From positions 31,921 through 95,920 of IMG/VR virus record IMGVR_UViG_3300032247_000581: 64,000 bases of DNA. One strand, given 5' to 3'. A model generated the notes under the pieces. The model was given only the letters and a program-made list of their open reading frames with translations. It was not told the DNA's origin and ran no database searches. A program made the position numbers and the translations under genes. Source of the stretch: a virus (Duplodnaviria > Caudoviricetes). Each line of letters begins with the position of its first letter. Within the stretch, counting starts at the first letter, position 1. Below, in pieces: positions 7,684 through 54,110 of this stretch.

Positions 7684-9486
7684 TTATCCATTATTAGTTG
7701 AGAACATTACAGCAGTTCCATTACTCATAGCGCCTCCGCCAATGCTTACGTTTGTTAATGAAGTTCCATTAGTTGAGTAGTACACGTTACTATTTCCACT
7801 GATACCAAATACCCAAGTTCCAGCATTATTGTAAGCCGCTGATTTGTACATTTGATTACCTCGTGTAAAATTTGGACTACCAGTAGAGGCCCATGTACCA
7901 GATAAACCAGTTGTTGTGTAATAAGCAGGTCTGTATGTGTCTCCACCAGAGTCGTATCCTGTTGCTATATAGTTATTGCCGCTTCCAGCAATTCCAGTCA
8001 TAGAAAAAGTACTACCCCAAGAAGCAGGGCCAGTTGTAGAAGTAGACATATTTGTTGTATATCTAAAACTTCCTTGATATCCAGCAATAGTAGTTCCATT
8101 AGCCAAAGTAATACTAGATTGAAAACCTTGTAACGGCGATGTGCGTGACCACGTAACACCATCATCTGTTGATATATGGCTGTTGGCATAAGCATTATTG
8201 TTTAAAGTGTAAAAAGTGCTGCCTACAAATACAACTTTATATTGTGTATAATAAGTAGAGTCAACGCTATCTATTTGATAGTTGGTCCACGTAGTTCCGT
8301 TTGTGGAACGGGTAACGTAAGCACTTGCTGAGTCGTACTTAACTCCAACAAATGCAGTTCCATTATATGCCATGGAAGTGATATTGTCTAAAGGCGCGGA
8401 AACTGATGACCAGGTAGCGCCATCAGCAGAATAATAATAAGCGGTAGAAGAAGGAATAACATATTTATTTGCTCCGTATGTTCCTGAAAAACCAGCAACA
8501 TTGCTTGTTGTATATGCAGAGGTTGTCCAAGAAGAGCCATTATCAGAGTAAGCAATTGGAACACTATTGCCTGGACCATACGCAACAAAACGTGCTAACT
8601 GTGGAGTTACAGAGTTAGATGCAGAGGAGGCCGTAGATGTTCCTTGTGCATTAGTAGCGGTAATTGTAAATGTATAAGCAGTTCCCGCTGTAAGTCCTGA
8701 AACAGTAATTGGGCTTGTTGCACTCGTTCCTGTAAGTGACCCAGGAGAAGATGTTGCTGTGTAGGTAGAGACTGCAGAGCCTCCAGTAGCACCCGCTGTA
8801 AAAGTAATAGATGCTGATGTAGAAGTTGGAGAAGTAGCAGTTCCTATAGTAGGAGCCTGAGGAACAGAAACTGGCGTAGTTGAAGCAGATGCACTAGAAG
8901 CAGAACTTGTGCCGTTAGTATTAGTTGCGGTTACTGTATAAGTTCTTGCGGTTCCTACTGCGTCAGAAATAGATATTGGACTTCCAGCACCCGTCGCAGT
9001 TCCACCACCAGAAGAGGTAACTGTGTAAGTAGAGACAGATGCTCCACCTGTTGCACCAGCAGTAAATGGGACAGACACAGATGCAGTTCCTGAGTAAGCC
9101 TGTCCTGATGCAACAGTCGGAGTTCCAATAGTAGGAGCATTAGGAACGGTAGTGGCAGTAATAGAAGAAGAAGTACCAGCAGGACCTGTTGCTGTTGTAT
9201 TTGTTCCAGTAACTGCAAAGGTGTAAGAAGTAGCACTTTGCAAACCTGTAACAGTCAGAGGAGATGTTCCTGTTGCAGTAAATGAACCAGGAGTAGATGT
9301 AGCGGTAAATGAAGTAGGTGTTCCACCAGTAGCAGCCGCTGTCACAGTGACTGTCGCAGAGCCGTTGTTATAGGCACGGCTTGTGCCAACGTTTGCAGCA
9401 CTTACTGTAGGCGCATCAGGAACGTCGGCAATAGGCGTGACGCCTGCCATGACGCTCTTTAATGAAACCTTGTTAGTGATAGTCAC
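7684..9486 (-). CDS. FN3 repeat fibre protein with BNR/Asp-box propeller
   Basis: FN3 units, then S.DG.TW Asp-box repeats (YSDNGSSW, YSADGATW, STDDGVTW). Confidence 0.8.
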   Translation of the reverse strand: MTITNKVSLKSVMAGVTPIADVPDAPTVSAANVGTSRAYNNGSATVTVTAAATGGTPTSFTATSTPGSFTATGTSPLTVTGLQSATSYTFAVTGTNTTATGPAGTSSSITATTVPNAPTIGTPTVASGQAYSGTASVSVPFTAGATGGASVSTYTVTSSGGGTATGAGSPISISDAVGTARTYTVTATNTNGTSSASSASASTTPVSVPQAPTIGTATSPTSTSASITFTAGATGGSAVSTYTATSSPGSLTGTSATSPITVSGLTAGTAYTFTITATNAQGTSTASSASNSVTPQLARFVAYGPGNSVPIAYSDNGSSWTTSAYTTSNVAGFSGTYGANKYVIPSSTAYYYSADGATWSSVSAPLDNITSMAYNGTAFVGVKYDSASAYVTRSTNGTTWTNYQIDSVDSTYYTQYKVVFVGSTFYTLNNNAYANSHISTDDGVTWSRTSPLQGFQSSITLANGTTIAGYQGSFRYTTNMSTSTTGPASWGSTFSMTGIAGSGNNYIATGYDSGGDTYRPAYYTTTGLSGTWASTGSPNFTRGNQMYKSAAYNNAGTWVFGISGNSNVYYSTNGTSLTNVSIGGGAMSNGTAVMFSTNNG

Positions 9487-39978: not shown

Positions 39979-40455
39979 TTAGAATCCTCTGTAGTAGCAA
40001 ACTTTGTCCAAGTAGTCGGCGCCCCAGCCCCTAGAGTAGTTAGCAGCCTGCTCTGGGGATAAGTTCTCCAGCAGCACCTGATAGACGCCCAAACGTTTAA
40101 TGCGCTTTCGCAACGGCAGCCTCTCCCCGAGCGGGCTTTTTTTGTTCTCCTCTGCAATCATGCCATAGTATAAAACTTTGAATATGGTCGCCGCCTTAGC
40201 AGTATCGGCATACTGGGCTGATATGGTGTGAATCAACAGGAGCACCTCTTCACGGATAGTTTCGTCGGTGAGCTCGTAGATGCCGATGAAGTCTTGATAG
40301 ATGTCGCTAGGGGCGCGGTATTGTGTGAAATCTTTAAGTATTTGAAAGTACCAGGAGTCGGTGGGGGCAAATCTTGTCTGTCCATCAATGACATAGACGC
40401 ACCAACCATCAAAGCGTCCATTATCAAATACTACCTGTGCATTCTCAAAATCCAT
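39979..40455 (-). CDS. Conserved bacterial-type hypothetical protein (GRFDGWCVY...GMIAEENK...KRIKRLG)
   Basis: Likely start MDFEN, 7 nt after TATTCT. Confidence 0.6.
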   Translation of the reverse strand: MDFENAQVVFDNGRFDGWCVYVIDGQTRFAPTDSWYFQILKDFTQYRAPSDIYQDFIGIYELTDETIREEVLLLIHTISAQYADTAKAATIFKVLYYGMIAEENKKSPLGERLPLRKRIKRLGVYQVLLENLSPEQAANYSRGWGADYLDKVCYYRGF

Positions 40456-40582
40456 AAGGGCGAGAATATCATAGGTGCGGCTACTGCTTAACGCGCACAC
40501 CTTCATCAAAAAATTTTTTACTGCTGCCATGTGGTAGCTACTGTTTTATGTTTTTATACTCAAGTTGTGATACGGTGTCTAT

Positions 40583-41635
40583 ATGGAAAAACTTGAGCCT
40601 ACACTTGATACTCGTTGCGGAAGCTATGCTGGCTACAAAGCTCACCGTGACCGTAATGAGCAGCTCTGCCAGCCATGTCGAGACGCCATGAATGCCTACC
40701 GACGTGATAAATGGAAGAGTGACCCAAAGTATAAGAACCATGGAAAAGCATATAGGGAAAGACATCCAGAGCGCGTAAAAGAGCAAGCAAAACGGCACAT
40801 TAAACACGTTGACCCAGAGGTCAAAGCAGCACGTAAAGCTGAGCGAGCAAAGGCAACTGCTGAACGTGCGGCAATTCGTAAAGCCGAAAAACAAGCTATA
40901 CGAGCTGCAAAGCTATCTGAACAGAGGAAGGCTACTCTTGCTCGTCAAAAAACAGAAAAAGCTCTTAAAGCCCAAAAATCAGCAGAGACTCAAGCACGGC
41001 TAGCGGCAAAGTACGCTGCAATGAACAAAGCCCGCGAAGAGCGCAAAGCAGCAGAGAAAGCCGCAAAAACAGCAGCTCGCAAAGCAGCTAGCGAGGCTCG
41101 ACGCCATCAGCGCAACGAGGAGCGCAAAGCCAACCGCAAGATACGAGAAACTAACCGAACCAAACTTGCACATCAACACGGAACTGGTCCAGGAGATTAC
41201 GACCGATGCCGTAAAAACAATAACGGCGTAGCATGTGATGCCTGCAAAGCAGCAGCAGCTAAGTACGCACGCGAGAAGTTTCATTCAGACCCAAAGTACA
41301 AAGAGGCTGAAAAACGATGGAGACAAGCAAACCCGCATAAGGTATACCGCGACAGTAAAAACCGAGCAGTCAAACATGGTGGCAAACATAAGTACTACAC
41401 ACGCCAACATATCTTTGACAGAGATGGTTATGACTGCTATATCTGCAATACCCCAGTAGACCTTGCGGCTAACCACATTCAAGGGCAACCTGGTTGGGAG
41501 CTTTATCCCCACATCGAGCATGTCAAACCTCTATCCAAAGGTGGAGACGATGTTCTTGAAAACGTAAAGATAGCCCATGCAGTATGCAACATTCGCAAAG
41601 GCACACAATTTGATGAGGCTACGGCTACTGTGTAG
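40583..41635 (+). CDS. HNH endonuclease with duplicated Zn-finger-like modules and Lys/Ala linker
   Basis: RDGYDCYIC...HIEHVKPLSKGG....N...AH..CN..KG. Confidence 0.85.
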   Translation: MEKLEPTLDTRCGSYAGYKAHRDRNEQLCQPCRDAMNAYRRDKWKSDPKYKNHGKAYRERHPERVKEQAKRHIKHVDPEVKAARKAERAKATAERAAIRKAEKQAIRAAKLSEQRKATLARQKTEKALKAQKSAETQARLAAKYAAMNKAREERKAAEKAAKTAARKAASEARRHQRNEERKANRKIRETNRTKLAHQHGTGPGDYDRCRKNNNGVACDACKAAAAKYAREKFHSDPKYKEAEKRWRQANPHKVYRDSKNRAVKHGGKHKYYTRQHIFDRDGYDCYICNTPVDLAANHIQGQPGWELYPHIEHVKPLSKGGDDVLENVKIAHAVCNIRKGTQFDEATATV

Positions 41636-41776
41636 CACATTCAACCTCAAAAATTTTTATACCCCCCTCACTTGGAGCACTGCCTAGCTTTAGACAAACT
41701 TTACCTACGGCTGCGGCCTGACCACTTTCCTGAGAATCACCTGTGCTAACCCTGGGGGGGTCGTGAGGGTAGAGGG

Positions 41777-41830
41777 TGTGGATAACTATATCCACAGGCT
41801 TTGCAGGCTATCTATCAGGCTCATTATAGT
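41777..41830 (+). promoter_or_regulatory. DnaA-box pair plus sigma-70-type promoter P1
   Basis: TGTGGATAA-ct-ATATCCACA-4nt-TTGCAG-18nt-TATAGT. Confidence 0.8.
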
Positions 41831-41877
41831 TATCTCATCGGCGCAGACGGCGCGGATATCTTATAGGGGGCAATTAA

Positions 41878-42057
41878 ATGGCAATTGACATCACTACAGA
41901 TAACAAGGCACTTTCCTATGTGGATTTAATCTGCATCAGTAATCTCCTACTAGCACACTCATTAGACGCAGGCGTTAAGGGTAACAGTGAGACTGCAACA
42001 CTAGCACTTAATCTCGCACAGAAAATCCACTCTATCCTTAAAGATATGGAGGCATAA
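41878..42057 (+). CDS. Small early protein (59 aa)
   Basis: AGGGGG RBS; first gene after P1. Confidence 0.55.
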   Translation: MAIDITTDNKALSYVDLICISNLLLAHSLDAGVKGNSETATLALNLAQKIHSILKDMEA

Positions 42058-42059
42058 TC

Positions 42060-42266
42060 ATGGCAACAACAATACATCTCGGCGGGATAGATAGCGACTG
42101 TGCTCAATGTGTAGCAGTAGCAACACCTAGTAAATGTGAACGGTGTGGTTCATTAGGCGCCGATACTTATACATATGAAGGCAGCGAGTGGACGACCTGT
42201 AAGTCATGCGAGGCTATTAGTGAACTAGCAATAGATAGTTATCTAGCAGATATTAGGGGGGAATAA
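42060..42266 (+). CDS. Small Cys-rich early protein
   Basis: Three CxxC motifs; GGAGG RBS. Confidence 0.6.
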   Translation: MATTIHLGGIDSDCAQCVAVATPSKCERCGSLGADTYTYEGSEWTTCKSCEAISELAIDSYLADIRGE

Positions 42267-42424
42267 TCGTGGTTCATTGGATGCAGACTTCAGACTTCTT
42301 TCTAGGCTTTGTAGTGTTGATACTACCTTTCTTAGTAGTAATGGCATGGGAGTCATGGCGCGAAAAAATACAAAATACATGGTTAGACGGTTATAGTGCA
42401 GGATACAAGGACGGGGATAAGTAG

Positions 42425-42622
42425 ATGCCCGCATATCCACAATTTCTTTACGAGGTAGAATCACCATTAAATTGGGATGCAGATTATTCATACCTAGAGT
42501 ATGAATTTTGCAAAATTGACAACGAGCATGAACAGGTTATTGCTTTATGGCAAGCACACCTTGAATTTATTACACCTAGCGATTTTGGTACACCTGACGA
42601 GGGAGAAGGAGTATTAGTATGA
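42425..42622 (+). CDS. Small acidic early protein
   Basis: 65-aa ORF. Confidence 0.55.
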   Translation: MPAYPQFLYEVESPLNWDADYSYLEYEFCKIDNEHEQVIALWQAHLEFITPSDFGTPDEGEGVLV

Positions 42623-42927
42623 GAAGGAACGCGCAAGGTGTGCCAGTCTGGGAGTGGACTATCACTGTGACTCTTTGGAGTGACAAGGTGAAAGACTCTT
42701 TCAAAGTTACTACCATGGTCTATCACACTAATGAAGCAATGGCTGGAGATGTAGGAGCCAAAAAAATTCAAGAAGCTTTCGGATTAAACTTTGATGAGTT
42801 TGATTGGGGTTGGAAAGTTGAGGCTGAGATGAGTGAGGAGTCACTACGCGACTTTAATAGTTCGACCCTGACGTTATCCGATGTAATTAACCACAATCCC
42901 TACATGTCTAAGGAGGTAAGCGCATGA
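42619..42927 (+). CDS. Early hypothetical protein
   Basis: AAGGAG RBS; ATGA overlap. Confidence 0.6.
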   Translation: MRRNAQGVPVWEWTITVTLWSDKVKDSFKVTTMVYHTNEAMAGDVGAKKIQEAFGLNFDEFDWGWKVEAEMSEESLRDFNSSTLTLSDVINHNPYMSKEVSA

Positions 42928-43118
42928 TTAAAGTATGGGAAAGTAAAAACACGCACGATAAATTCTTATTGATTACCTATAGAAAGGGCAAGTCTAGAAA
43001 GGTAGAAACCTTAAAGATACCTCTTGAATATGTAGAAGAGGTTATAGAAAAAGATTAGCCCCCCAGCTAAAACACGCAACCTCACCCTTTCCGTCGGGGG
43101 TGGGGTTGTTGTGCTAGT

Positions 43119-43172
43119 TGTGGATAACTTTATACACAGCCCTTGTACTAGGCCTAGGAGAGAACATAGACT
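43119..43172 (+). promoter_or_regulatory. DnaA-box pair plus promoter P2
   Basis: TGTGGATAA-ct-TTATACACA-4nt-TTGTAC-18nt-TAGACT. Confidence 0.8.
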
Positions 43173-43209
43173 AGCCTTAATAGAGGCCGATTATGAAGGG
43201 AGCGAATAA

Positions 43210-43332
43210 ATGCCAGAAGTACGCGATGTAGTTAAAGTAAGCATCAAAGAACTAAAACTGAGCAAGGTAGAACCAACTAACGAGTTCGAATGGAACTTAG
43301 TTAATAACTACTTACTAGAAAAGTGTAAGTAA
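43210..43332 (+). CDS. 40-aa monocistronic early peptide
   Basis: AAGGGAG RBS; lies between P2 and a terminator. Confidence 0.5.
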   Translation: MPEVRDVVKVSIKELKLSKVEPTNEFEWNLVNNYLLEKCK

Positions 43333-43340
43333 AAGCAAGG

Positions 43341-43361
43341 GCTCCCGCAAGGGAGCTTTTT
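43341..43361 (+). terminator. Intrinsic terminator
   Basis: gctccc-gcaa-gggagc-ttttt. Confidence 0.8.
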
Positions 43362-43439
43362 GTTTGTGTTGGGGCTGGTGTGTGTGGTGTGTGTTTTAAA
43401 GGCATTGGCTATAAGCGCAGCTTATAGCCAACACAAACA
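43361..43439. repeat. Inverted-repeat element 1 (GTTTGTGTTGG...CCAACACAAAC)
   Basis: 12-bp terminal IR, GT-rich interior and an internal 12-bp hairpin. Confidence 0.75.
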
Positions 43440-43462
43440 TTCCCCCCGCGCTCGGGCGTGTC

Positions 43463-43516
43463 TGTGGATAACTTTGTCCACAACCTTTGCACTAGGCTTA
43501 AGAGTGAGTCTAGACT
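43463..43516 (+). promoter_or_regulatory. DnaA-box pair plus promoter P3
   Basis: TGTGGATAA-ct-TTGTCCACA-4nt-TTGCAC-18nt-TAGACT. Confidence 0.8.
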
Positions 43517-43557
43517 AATCCTATCGCCAACAAGGGCGAGAGAATAAGGGGCAAAAA

Positions 43558-44547
43558 ATGGCACATATGTTAGAACAGGGAGAGAATGGCGAAACCGCTT
43601 TCGCTACCCGCAGCACACCTGCATGGCACAATCTAGGCACAGTGTTTGAAGATACACTATCAACTAGCCAAATGCTAGAAACCGCACACCTTAACAATTG
43701 GGATGTTCGCCTAGAAAAAATCACTTATCCAGAAGGGTACACAACTACTAAGGATGCTTTTAGCGTCGTACGCAATCATCCTTTTAATGGCAATCCCGAT
43801 GTTTTAGCGGTAGTCGGCGAGCGCTACAAGGTACTACAAAACGAGGAACTATTCTCATTCGGTGATGGCCTTACCGACGGCGGGGCAACATGGGAGACAG
43901 CGGGCTCAATCAAGAATGGCAAGGTAGTTTTTGGCTCTCTATCGGTTCCGCATGAATTTATCCTAGACCCACAAGGGGCTAACGATAAGACAGTGACCTA
44001 TCTTCTAGTTCACACATCACACGACGGCAGCACAGCGCTACAAGCCAACATCACACCCGTTAGAGTCGTATGCCAAAACACATTAAATATGGCGCTATCT
44101 AACACTAAGCAATCTTTCAAGGTACGCCACACACAGACAATCAACGGTCGCATGGAAGAGGCGCAACGTGTACTAGGTTTAACTAATACACATATGGATG
44201 AATTTGAAAAACTAGCGCGAGACCTATTCCAGACGGAGATTACAAATGCACAATTTGACAAGCTTGTCGCACAACTCTACCCAAAGCCTGATGAACTCTC
44301 CAAAATGGCTAACACCAAATACGAGCAGAAAATCGACACGATTAACAATCTCTACAAGGTCGCTCACACTCAAGATAACATTCGTGGCACCAAATGGGGA
44401 GCGCTTAACGCGCTCACTGAGCGAGTCGATTACTACCGCACAGCGCGAACAGGTAACGATGATTCCCTCATGGCTAGTGCAAGTGGATTCGATGTCCAGA
44501 CCAATGCAGAAAAGGGCAAAATTCTAAGAGCGGTCATGGCACTGTAA
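43558..44547 (+). CDS. DUF932 / phage-plasmid TIGR03299-like protein
   Basis: MAH...PAWHNLG, YKVLQNEE.F, ETAGS...G, SHDGS, TPVRVVCQNT, GTKWGALNA. Confidence 0.85.
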   Translation: MAHMLEQGENGETAFATRSTPAWHNLGTVFEDTLSTSQMLETAHLNNWDVRLEKITYPEGYTTTKDAFSVVRNHPFNGNPDVLAVVGERYKVLQNEELFSFGDGLTDGGATWETAGSIKNGKVVFGSLSVPHEFILDPQGANDKTVTYLLVHTSHDGSTALQANITPVRVVCQNTLNMALSNTKQSFKVRHTQTINGRMEEAQRVLGLTNTHMDEFEKLARDLFQTEITNAQFDKLVAQLYPKPDELSKMANTKYEQKIDTINNLYKVAHTQDNIRGTKWGALNALTERVDYYRTARTGNDDSLMASASGFDVQTNAEKGKILRAVMAL

Positions 44548-44561
44548 CAAGATAAGTAGAG

Positions 44562-44591
44562 GCGCCCTCAGCAATGGGGGCGCTTTTTTTT
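44562..44591 (+). terminator. Intrinsic terminator
   Basis: gcgccctca-gcaa-tgggggcgc-T8. Confidence 0.8.
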
Positions 44592-44627
44592 GATTTGACA
44601 ACTTTAGAATTTCCTGTAGTGTTAACC

Positions 44628-44723
44628 CTAGTCTCATCTATGGAACTGTTCAATGGACAGGAGACACCCTTTGAAGCAAACATGGAGGGACTAGTTGGTA
44701 AGAACTAGTCCCTCCACCTTCTT
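44628..44723 (+). ncRNA. Candidate small structured transcript
   Basis: TTGACA at 44595 and TAGTGT at 44617; GTCTC/GAGAC stem; perfect 14-bp hairpin at 44683-44716. Confidence 0.35.
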
Positions 44724-44787
44724 GCTTAGATATCCTACATCATCTTGACCAGTCATGCAACCAGAGTCCCACCTCCCAATTAAAAAA

Positions 44788-44861
44788 TGTTTGTGTTGGT
44801 GGCGTGCGTGTGTGTGTATCTTTACATTTAATACTTTAGGAGCTTTGCTCCAACACAAACA
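44788..44861. repeat. Inverted-repeat element 2
   Basis: TGTTTGTGTTGG...CCAACACAAACA. Confidence 0.75.
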
Positions 44862-44871
44862 ATGCCGAGCC

Positions 44872-44925
44872 TGTGGATAACTTTATACACAGGATTTGTG
44901 AGCGTAAAGAGAGTGAGAGTAGAGT
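44872..44925 (+). promoter_or_regulatory. DnaA-box pair plus promoter P4
   Basis: TGTGGATAA-ct-TTATACACA-4nt-TTGTGA-18nt-TAGAGT. Confidence 0.8.
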
Positions 44926-44966
44926 CCTCTATGTAAGGGCAATTACTACTAACAAGGGGCGATAAA

Positions 44967-45200
44967 GTGGCAAACAAATACGATATAAAGATGAAGATTG
45001 ACTTTCAAGGCGAAATTATAGCAGAAAGTCAAGAAGAAGCCGAGCAATTGGCTTGGGACAAGTGGGGAGAGAACTCAGACGCCGAAATCTCATATGACGG
45101 TGTTGCTTCAATAAAGGTAGATGATTTGGGCGAAATCTGCGACAACTGCGAAGAAGTTCAAGACAACTGCGAGTGCGAAGAAGAAGGCGAGGCTGAGTAA
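44967..45200 (+). CDS. Very acidic small early protein
   Basis: About 25 D/E versus 5 K in 77 aa; AAGGGG RBS. Confidence 0.65.
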   Translation: MANKYDIKMKIDFQGEIIAESQEEAEQLAWDKWGENSDAEISYDGVASIKVDDLGEICDNCEEVQDNCECEEEGEAE

Positions 45201-45388
45201 TGACACGCAAAGACTTCTTTATCATTGCACGGGTATTGGCTAACTATTCAGCCGAAGGTGGAGTGGTTGTAGAGCGCGATGAAATCGCATACAAACTAGC
45301 CGACGATTTGGCTCTTGCTTATCCTCGCTTTGACCGTCGTAAGTTCCTAGTGGCTTGCGGTGTCTATGAAAAGGCGGTGAGCGCATGA
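45200..45388 (+). CDS. Small early protein (MTRKDF..IA...PRFD..KF..ACG family)
   Basis: Motif common in phage early regions. Confidence 0.65.
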   Translation: MTRKDFFIIARVLANYSAEGGVVVERDEIAYKLADDLALAYPRFDRRKFLVACGVYEKAVSA

Positions 45389-45512
45389 CTCAGAAAGAAT
45401 TAAGAATTATCTTATGGGCATTAAAAAAGATAAAAAGGGATAATAACTGGACATCCTATGCTGGCGAGCAGATGGATACTTTAATTAGTAAGATAAATTG
45501 GGAGGTGAGCGC

Positions 45513-45707
45513 ATGACTACTAAGATGATTTGGGAAGGCGCAATTAGCGCAGAAATGGTCAATGGCTGGACAGACGAGGCAATCGAGGCTGTGCAGGTCG
45601 CGTTAGATGAGGCGTTAGATGAGGTTTTTTGCGCCCATGAACAGGCAGAGATTACTGCCAACCCACTAGTAAGACTAGTATTGGAAGGGTACTTAAGTGA
45701 CAACTAG
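45513..45707 (+). CDS. Small acidic early protein
   Basis: GGAGGT RBS; ATGA overlap. Confidence 0.55.
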   Translation: MTTKMIWEGAISAEMVNGWTDEAIEAVQVALDEALDEVFCAHEQAEITANPLVRLVLEGYLSDN

Positions 45708-45815
45708 AATCCTAGAAAGAGCAGACGCACGGCTACATCATGCCGAGTTAATCCTTAAGCAGACCATTACTTATCTAAGGAAGAACGGACACATCAAAGA
45801 GGCAAACGAACTGAT

Positions 45816-46094
45816 GTGGGCGTGGTCACATATCAACAAGATAGATTGGCTGGACTAATGACAACCAAGTATGAGGTCGTAGATACAGCCGAATACAACA
45901 CTGATGTGGAACAAATAACTATCTTAGTAGTGGACGGCGAAAAATATAGGCACGTGGCTTATTACTCAGAGAAGTGTTCTGGCTATGATTGGTATAACGC
46001 AGAGGGCAAAAAAATTGACGACCCTGACTGGGCAGAAGACCTAGATATGGACGATATTTGGCGTTCTAATGAGTTTGCTAAGGAGCAGAAATGA
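45816..46094 (+). CDS. Acidic early protein
   Basis: ORF; start may be the ATG at 45858. Confidence 0.55.
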   Translation: MGVVTYQQDRLAGLMTTKYEVVDTAEYNTDVEQITILVVDGEKYRHVAYYSEKCSGYDWYNAEGKKIDDPDWAEDLDMDDIWRSNEFAKEQK

Positions 46095-46200
46095 GCCATC
46101 AACATGAGTGGAGTTGCTCAGATATTCCTGGAATCTATACCTGTCATTGTGGAGTAGAAGGTTACTGGAACAGGACTACTAGAGAGATAATGGGGCAAAA

Positions 46201-46476
46201 ATGAAGAAACCGCATATGTACTACTGGACTAAGGACAATCTTGACCATGAGTGGAGAATCTTGCTGGTTGGCGAATACGAAAAGTATGAAGACGGCAATA
46301 ACATTGTTTCTGAGCTGGATGTGGCTGAGTATTGGCTGGTCACAGATGAGAAAGCCTACCCAGAAACCCATGTACCTGATGAAATTTCGGGCTTTGTAGA
46401 GATGTTATTAGATGATAAAGATACATATATAGATATACAGAGAGAGTATGAGAAGGAAGGACAACACCTGACATAG
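46201..46476 (+). CDS. Acidic early protein
   Basis: GGGG-CAAAA-ATG RBS. Confidence 0.6.
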   Translation: MKKPHMYYWTKDNLDHEWRILLVGEYEKYEDGNNIVSELDVAEYWLVTDEKAYPETHVPDEISGFVEMLLDDKDTYIDIQREYEKEGQHLT

Positions 46477-46573
46477 AGTTCTCCCTGAGGGACAGGTCGA
46501 GACAGGAGATTGAGCGGGTTGCCCCCCGCTCTTTCTTCATTTTAGTAGAGATTTCGCGCCCTACGACCTTAAA

Positions 46574-46663
46574 GTTTGTGTTGGCACGGGTTGCTGTTGT
46601 CTGTAATGTGCTGATTGTGCGATATATAAGCTTAAAGATATACATCAAGTGTCCAACACAAAC
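46574..46663. repeat. Inverted-repeat element 3
   Basis: GTTTGTGTTGG...CCAACACAAAC. Confidence 0.75.
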
Positions 46664-46673
46664 CCGCCCGCCC

Positions 46674-46703
46674 TGTCAAATCCTGTGGATAAAGTTATGC
46701 ACA
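46674..46703 (-). promoter_or_regulatory. Inverted DnaA-box pair with TTGACA but no clear -10
   Basis: Minus strand reads TGTGCATAA-ct-TTATCCACA-ggat-TTGACA. Confidence 0.65.
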
Positions 46704-46942
46704 GGGCGATAGCGAGCGCAAATGTCGATAAATCGCTAATAAAGAGAGATTAGGCTACTACTTAGCTGAATTGAGAGAGTATGCGGTGATAAGGCCAGAG
46801 TTTTGACCTGCCTTGATTGAAAGTTATCGCATACGAGCCACAATGCTCAGATAAGCACAAAAGAGAGACTCTTCCCCCCTCTATCTATATATAAAGAAGA
46901 AGAGAAAAGCAAAGGGCGCGAAATTTACATAGAAAGAGGGGC

Positions 46943-46996
46943 TGTGGATAACTTTATGCACAGGCTTTGATTGTCGTATTACCACGCACCTAGACT
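46943..46996 (+). promoter_or_regulatory. DnaA-box pair plus promoter P5
   Basis: TGTGGATAA-ct-TTATGCACA-4nt-TTGATT-18nt-TAGACT. Confidence 0.8.
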
Positions 46997-47081
46997 CATA
47001 CCTGTTGGTCTCCAATGATACAGAGGTAAGGTTGCCGTAGTCGGTAGCACCAACATCACACACTATCGCAAGGGGCGAAAA

Positions 47082-47420
47082 ATGTCATATATGAAGCAGT
47101 ACCTAGAGGAGCAAGCTATTGAGGTGAGTACAGAGTACCCACACCATGACACCGCTTTCTTTATCTACCTCGACAATATGGGGATTACTTTTGATGAAAA
47201 CTGGCGCGATAACATCTCCGACTTTCAAGAAGCATATATCGGTCAGTACGACTCAGACCGCGATTTCTTCAATGAAATGGCTGAGAACTCTAGCCTCTTT
47301 GATGAGGTTAGTCTTGACTCTCCTCTTCGTATCTATTTTGACATAGATTATTGGGGGCGAGATTTATTCATAGGTGGCGAATTTTGGCGCACCGACGGTT
47401 ACTACTTTAGGAGTTACTAA
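47082..47420 (+). CDS. ardA: ArdA-like antirestriction protein (short form)
   Basis: Acidic; FQEAYIGQYDS..DF and YFDIDYWGRDLF.G....DGYYFR resemble the ArdA C-terminal region. Confidence 0.75.
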   Translation: MSYMKQYLEEQAIEVSTEYPHHDTAFFIYLDNMGITFDENWRDNISDFQEAYIGQYDSDRDFFNEMAENSSLFDEVSLDSPLRIYFDIDYWGRDLFIGGEFWRTDGYYFRSY

Positions 47421-47421
47421 G

Positions 47422-47586
47422 ATGAATACAGGCAAAGGCAGGTTATATCTAGTATCAGAGCTAATTGAGGATATCTATGAGGATAACTTGAACCACTTTG
47501 AGTTTCACGAAAATATGGGTGGCGAAGATTGTGATTGCCATATCCATACCACTATTAAAACTATCGTAGAGTATTGGGAGAAATGA
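47422..47586 (+). CDS. Small acidic early protein
   Basis: AGGAG RBS; CDCHIH motif. Confidence 0.55.
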   Translation: MNTGKGRLYLVSELIEDIYEDNLNHFEFHENMGGEDCDCHIHTTIKTIVEYWEK

Positions 47587-47587
47587 A

Positions 47588-47908
47588 ATGAGTACAAAAG
47601 AAGAGTATCAAGCAAGGGCTAAGGTTTATTATGACCGCTATTACGGACAGTTAGAAGGCGTGACTATCCTTAAATATCTAGGTATGGAAGAGGAAGAGTG
47701 GGGAAATGGGTTCCCTAAGTTCCTCGTTGCTTATCCTGATACAGATACGGTAAAGGGCGCGGAATATGAAGTTACCGTGTCAAAAGATGAAGAGGGCAAC
47801 GGGGGCGGATTCTTATTTTTGCCTTTTGAGCCTAGTATGGACAGTTACGATAAAGAGCATAAATTAAATAGCTATTCAGTAGACGGACATCTAGTAGGGA
47901 GACACTAA
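47588..47908 (+). CDS. Early hypothetical protein (SKDEEGNGGGFL)
   Basis: 106-aa ORF. Confidence 0.6.
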   Translation: MSTKEEYQARAKVYYDRYYGQLEGVTILKYLGMEEEEWGNGFPKFLVAYPDTDTVKGAEYEVTVSKDEEGNGGGFLFLPFEPSMDSYDKEHKLNSYSVDGHLVGRH

Positions 47909-48327
47909 TGGGATACACACACTACTTTCAGCTACATACTCAGCCTAGTGAAAAGGGTTGGGCTAACTTTATTAAAGGAGTTAGACAGTTACTAGAACAG
48001 GCTTGGGATATAGCTATTGAAGGCGAAATTAACAATGAGGTTGTAGTCCTCAATGGCATAGGAGAAGAGAGCCATGAGACTTTCTTCTTTAGTAAGGTTA
48101 GTAATGAGTGGGAGTTCTGCAAAACTGCCCGCAAGCCTTATGACAAGGTAGTTACATCTGTACTTATCTTAGCTAAGTATCTATTCCCTAATATGTATCT
48201 TAGGTCAGACGGTGATTGGGAAGAGTGGATTGAAGGGCGCGAATTATTTAAGGAAGTTTTTTACCTAGAACCTGCCGAAAACACGGTCTTTGATAGCGTA
48301 GAAGCTAATCATGGAAGTTGCGCATAA
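47908..48327 (+). CDS. Conserved phage early protein (MGYTHY...HETF...FCKTARKPYD...SDG)
   Basis: Motif set recurrent in phage early regions. Confidence 0.65.
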   Translation: MGYTHYFQLHTQPSEKGWANFIKGVRQLLEQAWDIAIEGEINNEVVVLNGIGEESHETFFFSKVSNEWEFCKTARKPYDKVVTSVLILAKYLFPNMYLRSDGDWEEWIEGRELFKEVFYLEPAENTVFDSVEANHGSCA

Positions 48328-48460
48328 TGAACACGGTGGAACTATCGGAGCAAATACAGAACGATTTAATGGCATACCTCGACGGTATGTCTGAGGAACT
48401 AATAGATGAAGTTTGCCTAATAGTGGCAAAAAATTGCGTGAGATATGAGGGGGAAAAGTA

Positions 48461-48943
48461 ATGCATACATTACATTGGATTGCAGTAGAGGCAGATAACG
48501 CAGAAGAAGCGTTTGATAAAATCAATGACACATTGTTATATACCGAAGGTGACAGGTGGTGGGATTGGTTTGATGATGAGTTAGGCGGGCGTTGGGCAGT
48601 TTATGATTGGTGCAAAGCCTATCAAGGCAAAGAAATTGCTATTGGTTTAGAGAAGGTAAAAGCTAATCGTAAAGCCGAAGTTGAGCAAGCCTTATCACAT
48701 ATAAACCTATCTGAGTTTGAGTATCAACTTAACGGGTATGAAGGCGAAGACATTGTTACTAACGATTACTCCATGAATTTGTGGCGTATCAAAAAGGTTG
48801 CTGAGTTGTTATCGGGAAACTGGAACTGTGACTCATACTTCTATGACATGGAGTATGGCGACGGAGCTATGGGTGAATTACTAAAGCGCATAGAGTCCGA
48901 CCCTGATAAACAATTTCTTGTACCTATTGACTTTCACTTTTAA
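48461..48943 (+). CDS. Acidic early protein (WWDWF...GGRW...VPIDFH)
   Basis: 160 aa with GAGGGGG RBS. Confidence 0.65.
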   Translation: MHTLHWIAVEADNAEEAFDKINDTLLYTEGDRWWDWFDDELGGRWAVYDWCKAYQGKEIAIGLEKVKANRKAEVEQALSHINLSEFEYQLNGYEGEDIVTNDYSMNLWRIKKVAELLSGNWNCDSYFYDMEYGDGAMGELLKRIESDPDKQFLVPIDFHF

Positions 48944-48955
48944 GGGGGAAATGAA

Positions 48956-50734
48956 ATGCCTAGATGTATAGATTGTGATAACGATAAAGAGTTTATTCTT
49001 GCCTATGTTGAGTTTGAGGTAGTTACCTATAAAGGCGACAAAATCATTGACCAATACGCAGGAGATAGAGAACGCTTTGATGAGGGTTATGCGCCTGAGT
49101 GTAACAAGTGTAATAGTCTTAACATAGAGGGGGATATTTAATGATTAACGACCCTTGCCTAGATTGTGGCACACCAACGCTGGGTGTTATGACTATGCCT
49201 GACGGTTCAACTGTGGGCATAGGTATTAACAGACTTAGCTTTGATGATGGCTGGCGTTGTGGAGAGTGTGCTGGCTATGAGTGTGATGCGTGTGAAAAGA
49301 ATATCTACTTAGATGAAAATATAACTATTGACATGGGTGAGAACGGGAACAACCGCTATCACTATGAGTGTTTAACACCTGAACTAAAACTATTAGCTAT
49401 CGAACAGGGAGAAGTTGATGAGTAAGCAATACCACTATGTAGTGCTCTTTGATGAAAAGTCAAAGACATGGGAGATTGATTTTGAGGTTTCGATTAACTA
49501 TGACGAGGGAAATGTTTGGGATACACAGACCCAAGAGTGGAGCTACATAGACAGTAGCGAAGCAGAAGACATCATCATTCAAGACCTTAATACTAAGTTA
49601 GGAAAAGACAATGAGTGAATACATAGCAGTAAAAGGTTTAGGTGACACTATCACTTGTGATGAGTGCAACGACATAGCTGAAGATTGGTTCACGGGTGAC
49701 TCTCGCGCTATATGCCAAACTTGTTATAGTCAAATGCCTATAAGCATGAGTGAGTTAGCAGACCTTACGCACGCTACACAGGTTGAACGCTTTGGTTGGT
49801 GCAGTTGCGAAGACCTAGAGCCACACGAATACCCATACGCGGATTGTATTAAGGAGAATATGTAATGGCACAAGGATATAAAGGCGCAATTTCACTACAT
49901 GAACTCTGTAACTATCTCTATGTAGGCTTTGGTCAATGGGCTGTGTATAACTTAGTAGCAGACAGACAGAGAGAGGGTTATCTATCTGATGTTGAGTGGA
50001 GAGATTGCTTAGGGTGCGAAGACCGCACTCCTCATGATGAAGGCTCATGTTTAGTATGCGGAGGAAACTAATGACCAAACTTCCTGAGCGTATTAACGCT
50101 ATGAAATGTATTAGCTATGATGTTGAATCTATTGTAGACGCTATGATGACTATGGAATACAGAGAGTCAGAGCAAGAGATAACACTAGAAGATGTATTGG
50201 AGTGGATTGGTGATGATGTAGAATCCGATATTAACTTCTCTAATGTTATCTACCAAGATGAAAACGGTGGAGAGTTATGAAGGGGAGTAATAATGATTAG
50301 AGAACATAATGAACACGAAGGCTGGGTATGTGAGAGTTGTGGCTCAAACTGGGTTAGGTATGAACACTTAGATTACAAAGACTGTGATGAGCTTAATTGT
50401 GAAGACCCATGCATAGACCGTTGCTGTAACGAAGAAGAGTGCGCGGGCGTTGCTATATACAAAGGAGAAGAGGAAGAATTAAATGCCAACACAAACCGCG
50501 CCGATTGGCGCAACAGTTAATATTCGCTGGAAGGATATGCCCGAAGAGTTAATCTTTGAGGAGTATGTCTCTTTTGGGAATTATGATGAAAATGAAGAAA
50601 AAGATAATCACGGAATACATGATTTTTATGTATTTGCTTATGTAAATAGCTTGGAGGAACTAGAGACCATGCGCTCTAGTAATCCTAATTTTGACTGGTT
50701 ACTATCAGAAATTGTAGAGGTGCACTATGCGTAA
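48956..50734 (+). other. Run of eight coupled small acidic and/or CxxC early ORFs (48956-49141, 49141-49425, 49418-49618, 49611-49865, 49865-50071, 50071-50280, 50293-50520, 50483-50734)
   Basis: Start/stop overlaps with purine-rich RBSs; no recognisable families. Confidence 0.6.
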
Positions 50735-51620
50735 GTTACTACTAGTATTACTATTGACCGTTGGATTTATATCGCCCGCTCATGCTGGCTCAGAGCCTAC
50801 CGCCGTACTCATAGATAGTGGTGTTAATACCGCTCTCTATCCTAATAACATAGCCTATGAGGTATGTATTATTGAGAATACAACCTGTGCAAATGGCAAA
50901 AATTTTATGGAAGGTACTGGGGCTGCTCAGCAAGCTAACTCTAAGAATATGGAAGTTAATCATGGAGAGCAGATGCTATCCATCATGGTTAAAGTTAATC
51001 CTAGTATTAAGGTAATCCCTATTAAAATTGTGGGCGTTACCTCTTTGGGTAATCCATACCTTTATACACTAGCCTCAGTAAAGAGTGCTTTAGATTGGAC
51101 AGTAGCCAACAGAGTTAAGTTTAATATATCGGTAGTCAATATCTCTCAGGGCGCGATTTTTGCAGGGTGTAATGTACCTGCTGGATTAGCCGAAGATATC
51201 ACCGCATTGAAAGCTAACAATGTTCAAGTCATTGTTGCCACAGGTAACAACAGTAATCGTACGACTATGATGTCTCCTGCGTGTGTATCTGACGCTATCT
51301 CAGTTGGTGCAACGGACAACCCGTGGGCTGGTTCCCAACCTATTGCTTGGGACTCAACCGCTAAGCCTTACATAGCCCGATACAGTAACGGCAATACTCA
51401 GACTACTTTATACTCCAATGCTCGTTGGTTCGTAACCAACCTTGACGGCAGTACTAAGTTTATGGTTGGCACATCTAATGCCTCTGCTGCTGTGACAAGT
51501 TGGGTATTACTACATAAGGGAGTAGACTACGCTTCTACTTATCAAAACTTAATAGCAAGTGCAAGTGGTACGGCAAGTAACGAGTGGCTATCAGGTCGCT
51601 ATCTATTGATTAATCCATAA
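50727..51620 (+). CDS. Secreted subtilisin-like (S8) serine protease
   Basis: Signal peptide (AHA); IDSG (Asp), NHGE (His), ATGN (oxyanion), GTSNA (Ser). Confidence 0.85.
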   Translation: MRKLLLVLLLTVGFISPAHAGSEPTAVLIDSGVNTALYPNNIAYEVCIIENTTCANGKNFMEGTGAAQQANSKNMEVNHGEQMLSIMVKVNPSIKVIPIKIVGVTSLGNPYLYTLASVKSALDWTVANRVKFNISVVNISQGAIFAGCNVPAGLAEDITALKANNVQVIVATGNNSNRTTMMSPACVSDAISVGATDNPWAGSQPIAWDSTAKPYIARYSNGNTQTTLYSNARWFVTNLDGSTKFMVGTSNASAAVTSWVLLHKGVDYASTYQNLIASASGTASNEWLSGRYLLINP

Positions 51621-51629
51621 GGAGAAGTA

Positions 51630-51917
51630 ATGGCTAAAAAAGTTAATGCGTTACTTACAGGAACGCTAATTAAAAACAATGTTAAAGGTGGGGCGTGGTT
51701 AGCTTCATACTCAATTAATTACGAAGGCGTAGAGAGTCCTATCTCAGGTTCACATCACGCTTTCTCTAATGCAAGTGCTGGCAAGCGTTGGCTAAAAGAG
51801 ATGACGATTGCTAACACACCAAAGAAGTCTATTAAAATGGTTGCTGGTACAGCACTTGATGAAAAGGGTAAGCCTCTTGGATATCAAGGCGAAGTAAAGT
51901 TTAAGATAGAAGCATGA
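51630..51917 (+). CDS. Small basic hypothetical protein
   Basis: AAGGAG RBS. Confidence 0.6.
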   Translation: MAKKVNALLTGTLIKNNVKGGAWLASYSINYEGVESPISGSHHAFSNASAGKRWLKEMTIANTPKKSIKMVAGTALDEKGKPLGYQGEVKFKIEA

Positions 51918-52020
51918 GCTTTATAGACCCAATCGTTCCAACACCTGACTGGGGTAATCCTAGTCCTAATGTAGACCCTGATGAGTGGAACGACGAAGAC
52001 GAAGACTAGAACTAATAGTG

Positions 52021-52069
52021 AGCCCCAGCGATTAAAGCAAACAGAGAGTTGCTATCGCTGGGGCTTTTT
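52021..52069. terminator. Terminator between convergent regions
   Basis: agccccagcgat...atcgctggggcttttt. Confidence 0.7.
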
Positions 52070-52070
52070 A

Positions 52071-54110
52071 CTATTGATTGTCTTTTATTAGTTTTACCTC
52101 ACACGCATCTGTGGTGCAATAATTTTCGCCGATTGCGTCCATAGCCATACCAGCGTAGACACCAGCAAAATCAATAGGGAACAAAGACATACGAGCTTGC
52201 TCATATTCTTCTTCACTAATCTGAGTATATGGCATCTGTGGGTACACATGATTGCCCGAAGGTAAGAACGATACTGTCTTTAACTTACCGTCGTACATAT
52301 GGAGAGCGTGCTTAACATGGTTCTTCTCTGTCTCAGGGTCAAAAGAGACTGTTACTGATACAGAGTTATCTGACCACTCATACTGAGCAGTTGCAGCTAA
52401 ATCAATCTTTTCATAGATAGAGACTTCTTTTTCAGAACGAACTGCATCAGACTTAACAGGGAAGAACACTACTGAGGTATTTACAGGGTCTTCACTTGCT
52501 GGTTCAATACGATACTGCGCCATCTGAAAGAGGGGAAGCATCGGGTCAGTATTACGAAAACGAATTGCACGAAGAAAATATTTACCACCAACAGGCCAGT
52601 GAACTCCTGGGCTCTCTCCAGCTAAGATAGATACTGTGCCTGATGGCTTAACAGTAGTCATCTTAATAGACTCACGGATACCAAGCCACTCTGAGTATCC
52701 TTTGTCGTAATCTTTAACTACGTTGTAACCTTCATCGAGCCACTTGCGAAGAACAGGCAAGCCCTTGTTATCTGCAAAGTTAGCCACGCCTGATACTGAT
52801 GTACCGATACGGCGATTACGCTGCATGATTGCATTAGTTTCTTCCCAGTGGGTAGGCAAGAGAGTAACAGTCTTAGCATAGAGATAAGCAAACTTGAGAG
52901 TGCGCTTAAAATCTTCAATGCTGTCATGTCTATTAAGATAAGTTTCAACGAGAGTACAGCACTCAAAGCTTTCTAGTGACTGCTCAGCACATGGGTTGTA
53001 TCCCATAGCACGCCAGTCTTTGTTATTGATAGGGTCTTTAAGGCGTCCATATTTACGAGTGACATCCATCCAAATAACTCCTGGCTCACCATTGAGAGCG
53101 ATACCTTCAACAATTTTATCTAGGCTTTGGCCTACCGAGACTTCAACAGAGTTGTTAGACATCCAACCCCAACCTGAGTTCTTACCTGTTGGGTCGTAGA
53201 GATTGCGCTCTGGGAACTTCTCAGGGTTTTTAAGATTAAGGAAAGTCTCATCATCTATACGACCCATTAAGAGTTCAGCTGAACGTCGAACGTTACCGCT
53301 GACAACACAAACTCCAATCATGTTGCCAATATCTGCAATATCAGTACGACTTAGCTTTTCTCCTGCACGAGCCTTAAACATATTAGTAATAAGGTCATGG
53401 AGTCTTAGGAGCGGTTCATGTCCTGCTGCTGTTCCACCAAAGGTTTTGATTGGCGTGCCTGCTGGACGGATTTCTTTGTAGTCAAATAATGGAGCCTTCG
53501 TATCTGGCTTGAGGTAGGAATTGATGAGGGCAGCGGTTGATTCAACCCAACCTTCTCTGGTGTCGGGGATGACATAGGTTTCTCCTTTTAATGGTTCATA
53601 GATAATAAAATCTTTATCAGCGCCTTTATCGTCAAATCCCACTCCCACACCTAACATTGAAGCTTCCATTAAAAATGCAAATGGTTTAGCTGGGTCAATC
53701 TTGGTCATAGATAGGGTGGATACAAAAGCGCAATTTTGTAAGGCAGCAGAGTTGCGTTGCTCATTGACAATGGGTGTGCCCATTACCCATAGTCCTCTTC
53801 CAGGTGGTGTCCACTTGAGGTTCCACAAACGCTCAAAAGCTTCTTTGGCAGATGAGGCAGCTTTGGCATCAGACCATGGAAGACGGTTCATCTTTGCGTG
53901 GTCTTTTTGCAACGAGTACATACCATTAATGACTCGCTCGCAGACATCAGTCCACGTCTCTTTGGTTCCATCCTCTTTAAGTCTGGAATAAGTTCGAAGG
54001 AAAGTAATCTCCCCTACTGAGTTGCCTGCCGCATCTTGATAACCCCAAGGTACTTTCTTATCTCTGTATCCTGCGAGGAAATCTTCTGTTAAGCGGAATG
54101 ACAAACCCAT
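52071..54110 (-). CDS. nrdJ: Class II (adenosylcobalamin-dependent) ribonucleotide reductase, RTPR-type
   Basis: RTYSR, PPGRGLW, NCAF, GNVRRSA, NPCAEQ, TTVKPSGT and C-terminal CTTDAC. Confidence 0.92.
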   Translation of the reverse strand: MGLSFRLTEDFLAGYRDKKVPWGYQDAAGNSVGEITFLRTYSRLKEDGTKETWTDVCERVINGMYSLQKDHAKMNRLPWSDAKAASSAKEAFERLWNLKWTPPGRGLWVMGTPIVNEQRNSAALQNCAFVSTLSMTKIDPAKPFAFLMEASMLGVGVGFDDKGADKDFIIYEPLKGETYVIPDTREGWVESTAALINSYLKPDTKAPLFDYKEIRPAGTPIKTFGGTAAGHEPLLRLHDLITNMFKARAGEKLSRTDIADIGNMIGVCVVSGNVRRSAELLMGRIDDETFLNLKNPEKFPERNLYDPTGKNSGWGWMSNNSVEVSVGQSLDKIVEGIALNGEPGVIWMDVTRKYGRLKDPINNKDWRAMGYNPCAEQSLESFECCTLVETYLNRHDSIEDFKRTLKFAYLYAKTVTLLPTHWEETNAIMQRNRRIGTSVSGVANFADNKGLPVLRKWLDEGYNVVKDYDKGYSEWLGIRESIKMTTVKPSGTVSILAGESPGVHWPVGGKYFLRAIRFRNTDPMLPLFQMAQYRIEPASEDPVNTSVVFFPVKSDAVRSEKEVSIYEKIDLAATAQYEWSDNSVSVTVSFDPETEKNHVKHALHMYDGKLKTVSFLPSGNHVYPQMPYTQISEEEYEQARMSLFPIDFAGVYAGMAMDAIGENYCTTDACEVKLIKDNQ

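Follow-up and report, generated by a model that had tools for sequence, protein, structure and literature searches.

The 64,000 nucleotides (nt) of DNA analyzed here, referred to as the window, are bases 31921–95920 of the IMG/VR record IMGVR_UViG_3300032247_000581, a 95,920-bp viral genome (Duplodnaviria; Caudoviricetes) with terminal repeats that is rated complete. In the sole plus-strand gene block of this phage (40583–51917), which is taken as its early island, each of five predicted promoters is preceded, at one and the same distance, by two head-to-head copies of a DnaA box. Judged from the sequence, DnaA probably binds these predicted boxes, and the full model, according to which the early promoters would be controlled by the DnaA protein of the host, has roughly an even chance of being correct.

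A first-pass annotation of the window had listed six 20-bp units of paired DnaA boxes, and a scan with the corresponding degenerate 20-mer found them at positions 41777, 43119, 43463, 44872, 46684, and 46943. Each site is scored on both strands, so that the six sites amount to 12 matches, compared to 0.14 expected and a maximum of 2 in any shuffle. The annotation had seen no such unit outside the island, and this holds true for the entire 95,920-bp record, whose scan yielded the same six sites only, all within the plus-strand island. Two other interpretations of the 20-mer were rejected: it is not a CRP-family site, as its TGTG...CACA halves are 12 nt apart and not 8, and it is not a hairpin, as a 2-nt loop cannot form.

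The five pairs in plus orientation are each followed by exactly 4 nt, a TTGnnn −35 hexamer, exactly 18 nt, and a −10 hexamer, just as the annotation had described. Cassette 1 (41777–41830) consists of the box pair at 41777–41796, the −35 hexamer at 41801–41806, and the −10 hexamer TATAGT at 41825–41830, and is followed by six small open reading frames (ORFs) at 41878–43058. In cassette 2 (43119–43172), with the box pair at 43119–43138, the −35 hexamer at 43143–43148, and the −10 hexamer TAGACT at 43167–43172, the target is an ORF of 40 amino acids (43210–43332) with a terminator at 43337–43360. Cassette 3 (43463–43516; box pair 43463–43482, −35 hexamer 43487–43492, −10 hexamer 43511–43516) precedes the DUF932 gene (43558–44547), which ends in a terminator at 44558–44587. 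Cassette 4 (44872–44925; box pair 44872–44891, −35 hexamer 44896–44901, −10 hexamer TAGAGT 44920–44925) is located in front of eight small ORFs (44967–46476) and a terminator (46512–46531). Finally, cassette 6 (46943–46996; box pair 46943–46962, −35 hexamer 46967–46972, −10 hexamer 46991–46996) heads an operon of ~4.8 kb (47082–51917), whose first gene (47082–47420) is ArdA-like. All of these cassettes and genes are on the plus strand. A ribosome binding site of the GGGG/GGAG type together with a start codon is present 35–85 nt past each of the five promoters, in agreement with what had been noted before. Terminator-like hairpins occur ahead of four cassettes, at 43089–43105 (weak), 43337–43360, 44558–44587, and 46512–46531, and thus the island appears to be divided into separate transcription units.

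In a repeat alignment, the five promoter units form an ungapped 55-nt family with 60–80% identity, whereby the lengths are held while the letters of the spacers drift. The −10 hexamers (one TATAGT, three TAGACT, and one TAGAGT) all fit the motif TANNNT, which constitutes the −10 element at 80% of Streptomyces transcription starts (PMC4895711). Our promoter calls rely on this actinobacterial rule and not on an E. coli-style promoter scan, which did not list the five promoters, since their −35 hexamers match only TTG, and which returned a site total no higher than in shuffles. Genome-wide, TTGnnn followed after 16–19 nt by the same type of −10 hexamer occurs at 20 places, of which only these five have a box pair, and the other 15 are all located inside ORFs according to the ORF coordinates. 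If the −10 hexamer is set at −12 to −7, the proximal box spans approximately −49 to −41 and the distal perfect box approximately −60 to −52.

The unit at 46684–46703 (site 5) had been annotated as inverted. This is correct in so far as its central dinucleotide is AG instead of CT and as, on the minus strand (46703–46650), the pair is followed by 4 nt, TTGACA (46679–46674), 18 nt, and TGGACA (46655–46650), but the unit has no credible −10 hexamer. The TTGACA is conserved in three related phages (L012, L027, and L057). TGGACA does not have the A2 and T6 of a −10 hexamer, and its TGG is provided by the right arm of inverted-repeat element 3 (described below). As TGGACA is thus not a −10 hexamer, a sixth, leftward promoter at site 5 is doubtful.

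That the units are DnaA boxes was borne out by every sequence test applied, i.e., by the consensus, by the position of mismatches, and by the occurrence of the 20-mer upstream of dnaA. The DnaA box has the consensus TTWTNCACA, whereby positions 3 and 5 are degenerate and T2, T4, and C6 to A9 are not tolerant to substitution. Among the 12 half-sites of the phage, six are the perfect 9-mer TTATCCACA, and the remaining ones are TTATACACA (two), TTATGCACA (two), TTGTCCACA (one, the proximal half of box pair 3), and ATATCCACA (one). The imperfect halves differ at position 5 (four times), at position 3 (once, which yields the actinobacterial box TTGTCCACA), and at position 1 (once). The pattern TT(A/T/G)TNCACA therefore fits 11 of the 12 half-sites, and the exception carries an A at position 1. 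When the window phage and eight relatives were counted together, position 3 or 5 was altered in 9 of 13 one-mismatch boxes beside a perfect box, compared to 5 of 39 elsewhere. Thus, the substitutions at positions 3 and 5 agree with the known tolerance of DnaA.

The exact 20-mer was also found in 42 other viral contigs, mostly within dense box arrays, and in at least 120 bacterial genomes, compared to ~9 by chance according to our own estimate. In four of the six box-dense loci tested (L119, L135, L157, and L172; Apilactobacillus, two Bacillales, and one Clostridium) it precedes dnaA by no more than ~130 bp and agrees with the phage sites in its central CT and in its C-rich flanks. The occurrences in actinobacteria are of a different kind. 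In Streptomyces (~73% G+C; L114, L124, L133, L146, L150, L152, L165, and L167) the AT-rich 20-mer is a conserved isolated site, which lies ~36–40 nt upstream of the start codon in loci read in that orientation, with a divergent gene on the opposite side. The downstream gene encodes a DUF4192 protein in L114 and L146, and the site may represent a so far unreported DnaA-controlled promoter. In two Saccharopolyspora species the 20-mer belongs to a small cluster of boxes ahead of a gene for a transporter. Because of these Streptomyces and Saccharopolyspora sites, the 20-mer cannot be regarded as limited to replication origins.

In order to follow the boxes beyond the window, relatives were gathered via DUF932, seven of which carry inverted-repeat elements with the 11-mer GTTTGTGTTGG and are here called inverted-repeat-bearing relatives. 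These contain 55 perfect 9-mers in 77 kb, whereas 300 letter-shuffled versions of the word averaged 0.8 and did not exceed 6, and 49 of the 55 are on the strand of the early genes. The boxes are clustered in two complete relatives, in which 5–7 kb contain 10 of 14 and 9 of 10 of them, respectively. The arrangement of the boxes changes from lineage to lineage. In the window phage, L012, and L027 the boxes are paired in inverted orientation, 2 bp apart; in L056 and L057 two to three of them follow each other as direct repeats with a 14-bp period; L060, L062, and L064 have a single perfect box, which is extended to TGTGGATAACT and followed by a lineage-specific second half; and more distant relatives have convergent box pairs just upstream of DUF932. 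Across the box-bearing lineages, DUF932 shows an identity of only 57–78%, with the 9-mer being letter-perfect, and DUF932 is the only island protein that is common to the distant box-bearing lineages. The first-pass annotation had stressed a fixed spacing between box and −35 hexamer. Within this genome and its nearest relative this could be confirmed, since each of the six sites here and both L012 sites have a distance of 4 nt. It does not extend further, as the distance is 13 nt at three of three L027 sites and 12 nt at two L057 sites, and other lineages have one box with a different second half. In L060 and L064, where cassettes were counted by hand, a −10-like hexamer occurs 37–40 nt after the single box, as is the case here.

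Since the 9-mer stays perfect while symmetry, number, spacing, and neighboring genes change, a reader of single boxes that is supplied by the host is favored. A conserved 9-mer in shifting arrangements would fit better to a protein that recognizes a single 9-mer than to a symmetric dimer or to a co-evolving phage repressor. Nevertheless, we also considered that a protein other than DnaA, such as a phage protein encoded in the conserved minus-strand portion of the genome, DUF932, or another regulator of the host, reads the boxes. In that case, the sites would resemble DnaA boxes through mimicry or by chance, and their function would be that of operators by which the early genes are shut off. 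At first sight, the sites of this phage have the usual look of dimeric-repressor operators, as they are 20-bp palindromes beside promoters. DUF932 is the one gene that every box-bearing relative has, and in many of the distant ones a box pair directly precedes it; the lineage-specific second halves in L060, L062, and L064 suggest a co-evolving factor; and the 20-mer of Streptomyces is an isolated site upstream of a DUF4192 gene and not at oriC, and the Saccharopolyspora cluster stands before a transporter gene. However, a dimeric operator should retain its symmetry, which is lost in L056 and L057 (direct repeats) as well as in L060, L062, and L064 (single box), with the 9-mer remaining perfect. 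Operators of phage repressors normally diverge together with the phage, which is at odds with a perfect 9-mer at such low DUF932 identity, and the substitution pattern matches what DnaA tolerates. Furthermore, the Streptomyces phage Tomas has DUF932 without the boxes, and the island proteins scanned do not show any DNA-binding family. Overall, we regard another reader as unlikely.

Host DnaA is thus the reader that we prefer, and the phage itself offers no substitute for it, as no Bac_DnaA_C domain was found in its genome and a Bac_DnaA match was at chance level only. According to this model, the cassette would be the regulatory unit of an early promoter for the host RNA polymerase with a sigma-A type factor, usually located after a terminator and often after an inverted-repeat hairpin, and its elements would be, in this order, a distal DnaA box that is strong, a proximal one that is inverted and weaker and ends 4 nt ahead of the −35 hexamer, TTGnnn, 18 nt, and TANNNT. 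Host DnaA, which would be present when the DNA enters the cell, would occupy the strong box and cooperatively fill the weaker box beside the −35 hexamer, where it might modulate RNA polymerase by a graded, cooperative occupancy. A stimulation or gating would be the likelier effect, since the box pair is located upstream of the promoter and does not overlap it, although repression by spreading of DnaA-ATP could also occur. Early expression, including that of ArdA and DUF932, would then follow the DnaA level of the host and hence its replication or growth state. From other bacteria it is known that DnaA can act as activator and as repressor at promoter-proximal boxes, e.g., those of dnaA and nrdAB (PMC8203912), and that it acts at those of sda (PMC2533591). 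The annotation had proposed that host DnaA controls early anti-defense genes. In favor of this, the boxes are found at promoters of the sole plus-strand island, the phage has no DnaA-type DNA-binding domain, and the box is conserved in relatives; of the anti-defense part, the ArdA-like gene alone remains, as most of the island genes have no known family.

Several observations weigh against a control by host DnaA. The textbook box of high-G+C actinobacteria is TTGTCCACA and not TTATCCACA. The regions around dnaA in five small actinobacterial genomes were poor in canonical boxes and lacked pairs spaced by 2 bp, which is uninformative on the real host. The distance between box and −35 hexamer differs among relatives (4, 12, 13, and ~36 nt), so that one stereospecific contact to RNA polymerase is not evident. 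The second half found in L060, L062, and L064 does not make a good DnaA box, and therefore another factor may participate. Moreover, the box trait is missing from two relatives in culture, the Streptomyces phages BRock and Tomas: there is no DnaA box in the DUF932-containing terminal repeat of Tomas (L228, first 11.4 kb), and BRock has four scattered boxes, which is about chance level. It might also be that DnaA is not needed at all, as the promoters already look competent for sigma-A, and the constant spacing within one genome could partly be due to copying between cassettes.

Two of these relatives show further elements. In L062 (e.g., 7177–7209 and 5856–5915) a perfect box is followed by two (A/G)TGAACA words in an 11-bp register, so that three elements are one helical turn apart, with the promoter ~36 nt beyond; the (A/G)TGAACA words may be the target of a second, lineage-specific factor. 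The DUF932 region of Tomas repeats another palindrome, GACCGG(G/C)CCGGTC, with two 12-mer forms present 14 and 12 times, respectively, among small gene cassettes.

A gene-free control region of ~600 nt (46477–47081) separates the targets of cassettes 4 and 6. It contains, in this order, a terminator, inverted-repeat element 3, pair 5, a one-mismatch box (46723–46731), an AT-rich stretch, and pair 6, and this layout is kept in L027 and L057. In the equivalent region of L057, a perfect 14-bp palindrome of the parS type, GTTTCACGTGAAAC, is present at 8339–8352 between inverted and forward boxes. In the window, neither a parS-like site with two or fewer mismatches nor a LexA-type SOS box was detected.

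It is for the region 46477–47081 that a role of DnaA other than promoter control would be most plausible, be it as an origin or as a sink. DnaA might bind the boxes with promoter control not being the main purpose, and the sites could instead belong to a DnaA-dependent origin, or to its activation by transcription, centered on 46477–47081, could be a datA-like sink that withdraws DnaA from the host with increasing phage copy number, or could tether the incoming DNA to DnaA at the membrane, a role that has been proposed for phage T5. A DnaB-like helicase, a primase, and a DNA polymerase are encoded by the phage itself, but no initiator was recognized among the proteins scanned, and the oppositely oriented pairs 5 and 6 flank a conserved, partly AT-rich non-coding stretch of 240 bp with the additional one-mismatch box. 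Moreover, the 20-mer of many unrelated viral contigs sits in dense, origin-like box arrays, and T5-like phages have paired DnaA boxes in inverted repeats of the first-injected DNA (bioRxiv 10.1101/866236). An origin or a sink would, however, not need what is seen here, namely four of the six pairs spread over 5 kb, with each pair at the same fixed distance from a promoter of its own. In the relatives, 49 of 55 boxes are oriented in the direction in which the genes are transcribed. An unwinding element or a DnaA-trio array was not identified. Taken together, a main function outside of promoter control seems rather improbable to us.

The cassettes also have features of mobile units. Three of the six box pairs are preceded by an inverted-repeat element, in which 11-nt arms of conserved sequence (GTTTGTGTTGG and its complement) flank a variable GT-rich loop, i.e., element 1 (43362–43438) 24 nt upstream of box pair 3, element 2 (44789–44860) 11 nt upstream of box pair 4, and element 3 (46574–46663) 20 nt upstream of box pair 5. 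The same element is present ahead of most cassettes in the relatives. The 11-mer occurs in 11 copies in the 95.9-kb genome, compared to ~0.05 by chance as estimated by us; six copies represent the arms of the three elements between 43362 and 46663, and five are single copies within coding regions on either strand (window positions 1390, 9994, 21621, 26657, and 50496). Since the arms are conserved in sequence and do not covary, a reader at the DNA level seems more likely than an RNA stem. The gene content behind the cassettes is highly variable, with only DUF932 and a few other genes being common to the relatives. In contigs of related strains from two metagenome runs, the sequence 44586–44784 is replaced by 40 unrelated nt, and two runs show an inverted-repeat arm ahead of box pair 2. 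Such swaps or losses of modules adjoin the repeats, and there is no direct sign of an exchange at the boxes. The island resembles the PeSL system, a promoter-plus-stem-loop repeat that mediates gene shuffling in T4-type phages (PMC2839356), as it contains a repeated early promoter with a stem-loop, in intergenic position, before orphan genes in a hyperplastic region.

A further possibility is that the boxes have no specific reader. They could be the recombination handle of mobile PeSL-like cassettes, or an AT-rich, UP-like element for the alpha subunit of RNA polymerase, and their spacing would be inherited by copying. Both the cassette architecture with its highly variable gene content, which matches the behavior of PeSL (PMC2839356), and the swapping and loss of modules at these repeats among metagenome contigs of related strains speak for it. 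However, neither a handle nor an UP element needs a letter-perfect, universal DnaA 9-mer that is conserved while the cassette diverges, and the outer letters TGTGG/CCACA, which contain G+C, are the best conserved ones. As the spacers have diverged to 60–80% identity, recent copying alone cannot explain the constancy of the lengths. We consider this possibility very improbable.

Between cassettes 3 and 4 a box-less unit is located (44595–44716), in which TTGACA is followed by 16 nt, TAGTGT, ~60 nt without a convincing ORF, and a perfect 14-bp hairpin (44683–44716), and which is a candidate for a small RNA. An Rfam search of 40400–52200 with a permissive threshold gave no matches.

The phage is assigned to actinobacteria because its genome contains two WhiB-family genes. 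Its terminase is 55% identical to that of the Streptomyces phage BRock, and the window has a G+C content of ~43%. Sequencing runs with sizeable parts of the stretch came from one study coded as “metagenome” and from one freshwater study, and the runs with small shares are mostly from freshwater, too. No RNA run was listed for 41700–47100, and the runs that were aligned consisted of DNA contigs only. A comparison of the phage ribonucleotide reductase with 401 Actinomycetota genomes, carried out for host identification, did not yield any result. Nearly all genes are on the minus strand, including those for tail, portal, terminase, lysin, and ribonucleotide reductase, as well as the replication genes for DNA polymerase, DnaB-like helicase, primase, and a UvsX-like recombinase. 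The GC skew merely tracks the strand switch. The plus-strand island contains genes for a 350-amino-acid HNH protein, DUF932, an ArdA-like anti-restriction protein (32 bits at a cut-off of 27), and ~30 small ORFs without known family; no regulator family was found among the island proteins scanned. It is from the promoter type and the strand layout that we infer the island to be early. The first plus-strand gene (40583–41635) encodes the 350-amino-acid protein, in which the HNH nuclease motif is at the C-terminus and residues 9–46 give a weak WhiB-like match (PHROG E = 1.6e-4). This gene has no box-type promoter, and the gap to the divergent DUF7004 gene is only 52 nt.

We have compared the predicted sites to known systems. 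The promoters of E. coli dnaA and nrdAB and of B. subtilis dnaA, sda, ywlC, and yydA resemble those of the phage in that consensus 9-mers are located near a promoter for the housekeeping sigma factor and a strong box has a weaker neighbor, and at nrdAB DnaA activates from high-affinity boxes and represses at high DnaA-ATP levels (PMC8203912). In contrast to these bacterial promoters, the sites predicted here belong to a phage of lytic type, are found at every early promoter at one distance, and are a conserved trait of the clade. Phage lambda reportedly has DnaA sites downstream of pR. In Firmicutes, the identical 20-mer with the central CT and the C-rich flanks is located up to ~130 bp upstream of dnaA in the four genomes tested, but there it is part of dense dnaA/oriC arrays with 8–16 perfect boxes in ~800 bp that serve replication and autoregulation, whereas the phage has isolated pairs, one per promoter. 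In the PeSL cassettes of T4-type phages, too, a strong early promoter of the host type is joined to a terminator or stem-loop and precedes small orphan genes in a variable region (PMC2839356), but the sequence upstream of their −35 hexamer is simply AT-rich, and DnaA boxes have not been reported for these cassettes, whereas here this position is taken by a DnaA-box pair. In further difference to PeSL, the phage studied here is an actinophage and its hairpin arms are a conserved 11-mer. Consensus or near-consensus box pairs a few bp apart are also found in the inverted repeats of T5-like phages, in the pre-early host-takeover region and family-wide (bioRxiv 10.1101/866236). The pairs of T5 are 3 bp apart, are located in large non-coding repeats, are not tied to promoters, and have been proposed, but not shown, to stop DNA injection, whereas the gap here is 2 bp and each pair is 4 nt from a −35 hexamer. 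Our literature searches yielded no description of DnaA boxes at early promoters of actinophages, and with regard to phage early promoters or to actinophages in general, only the T5 preprint was relevant.

A sister clade, which was also found via DUF932 (L065–L098), has sites of another kind. In 487 kb of early-region loci we detected 83 perfect TGTGA-N6-TCAC(A/C) palindromes of the CRP/GlxR type, with up to seven per locus, compared to 0–3 for spacers of 4, 5, 7, or 8. One of them is often located upstream of the DUF932 promoter, at times together with a DnaA-box pair (e.g., L068:5895, L080:5887, and L072:5893). The window phage has no such palindrome. These sites suggest a wider habit of wiring early promoters to global regulators of the host. 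One could go further and regard the early cassettes of a clade of freshwater actinophages as exchangeable units with a plug-in site for a global regulator of the host, namely DnaA boxes here and, in the sister lineage, CRP-type sites; if DnaA were a limiting activator, the promoters would form a copy-number timer. In such a case, the boxes would gate infection on the replication state of the host, and the multiplying phage DNA would dilute DnaA per promoter, whereby the early genes would be turned off and host initiation would be blocked with no phage regulator being needed. We regard this extension as having a small chance of being right.

If host DnaA indeed reads the sites, the first transcription of the phage, including that of its anti-restriction gene, would be tied to a protein that reports imminent replication of the host, which for slow-growing lake bacteria could decide between productive infection and waiting. 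The role of DnaA as a transcription factor would then extend to phage early promoters. Five paralogous promoters of one geometry, together with the natural variants with 12–13 nt, provide a simple and mutable test system in this context. Considered alongside the CRP-type sites of the sister clade, the boxes suggest that phage early cassettes recruit global regulators of the host as interchangeable inputs.

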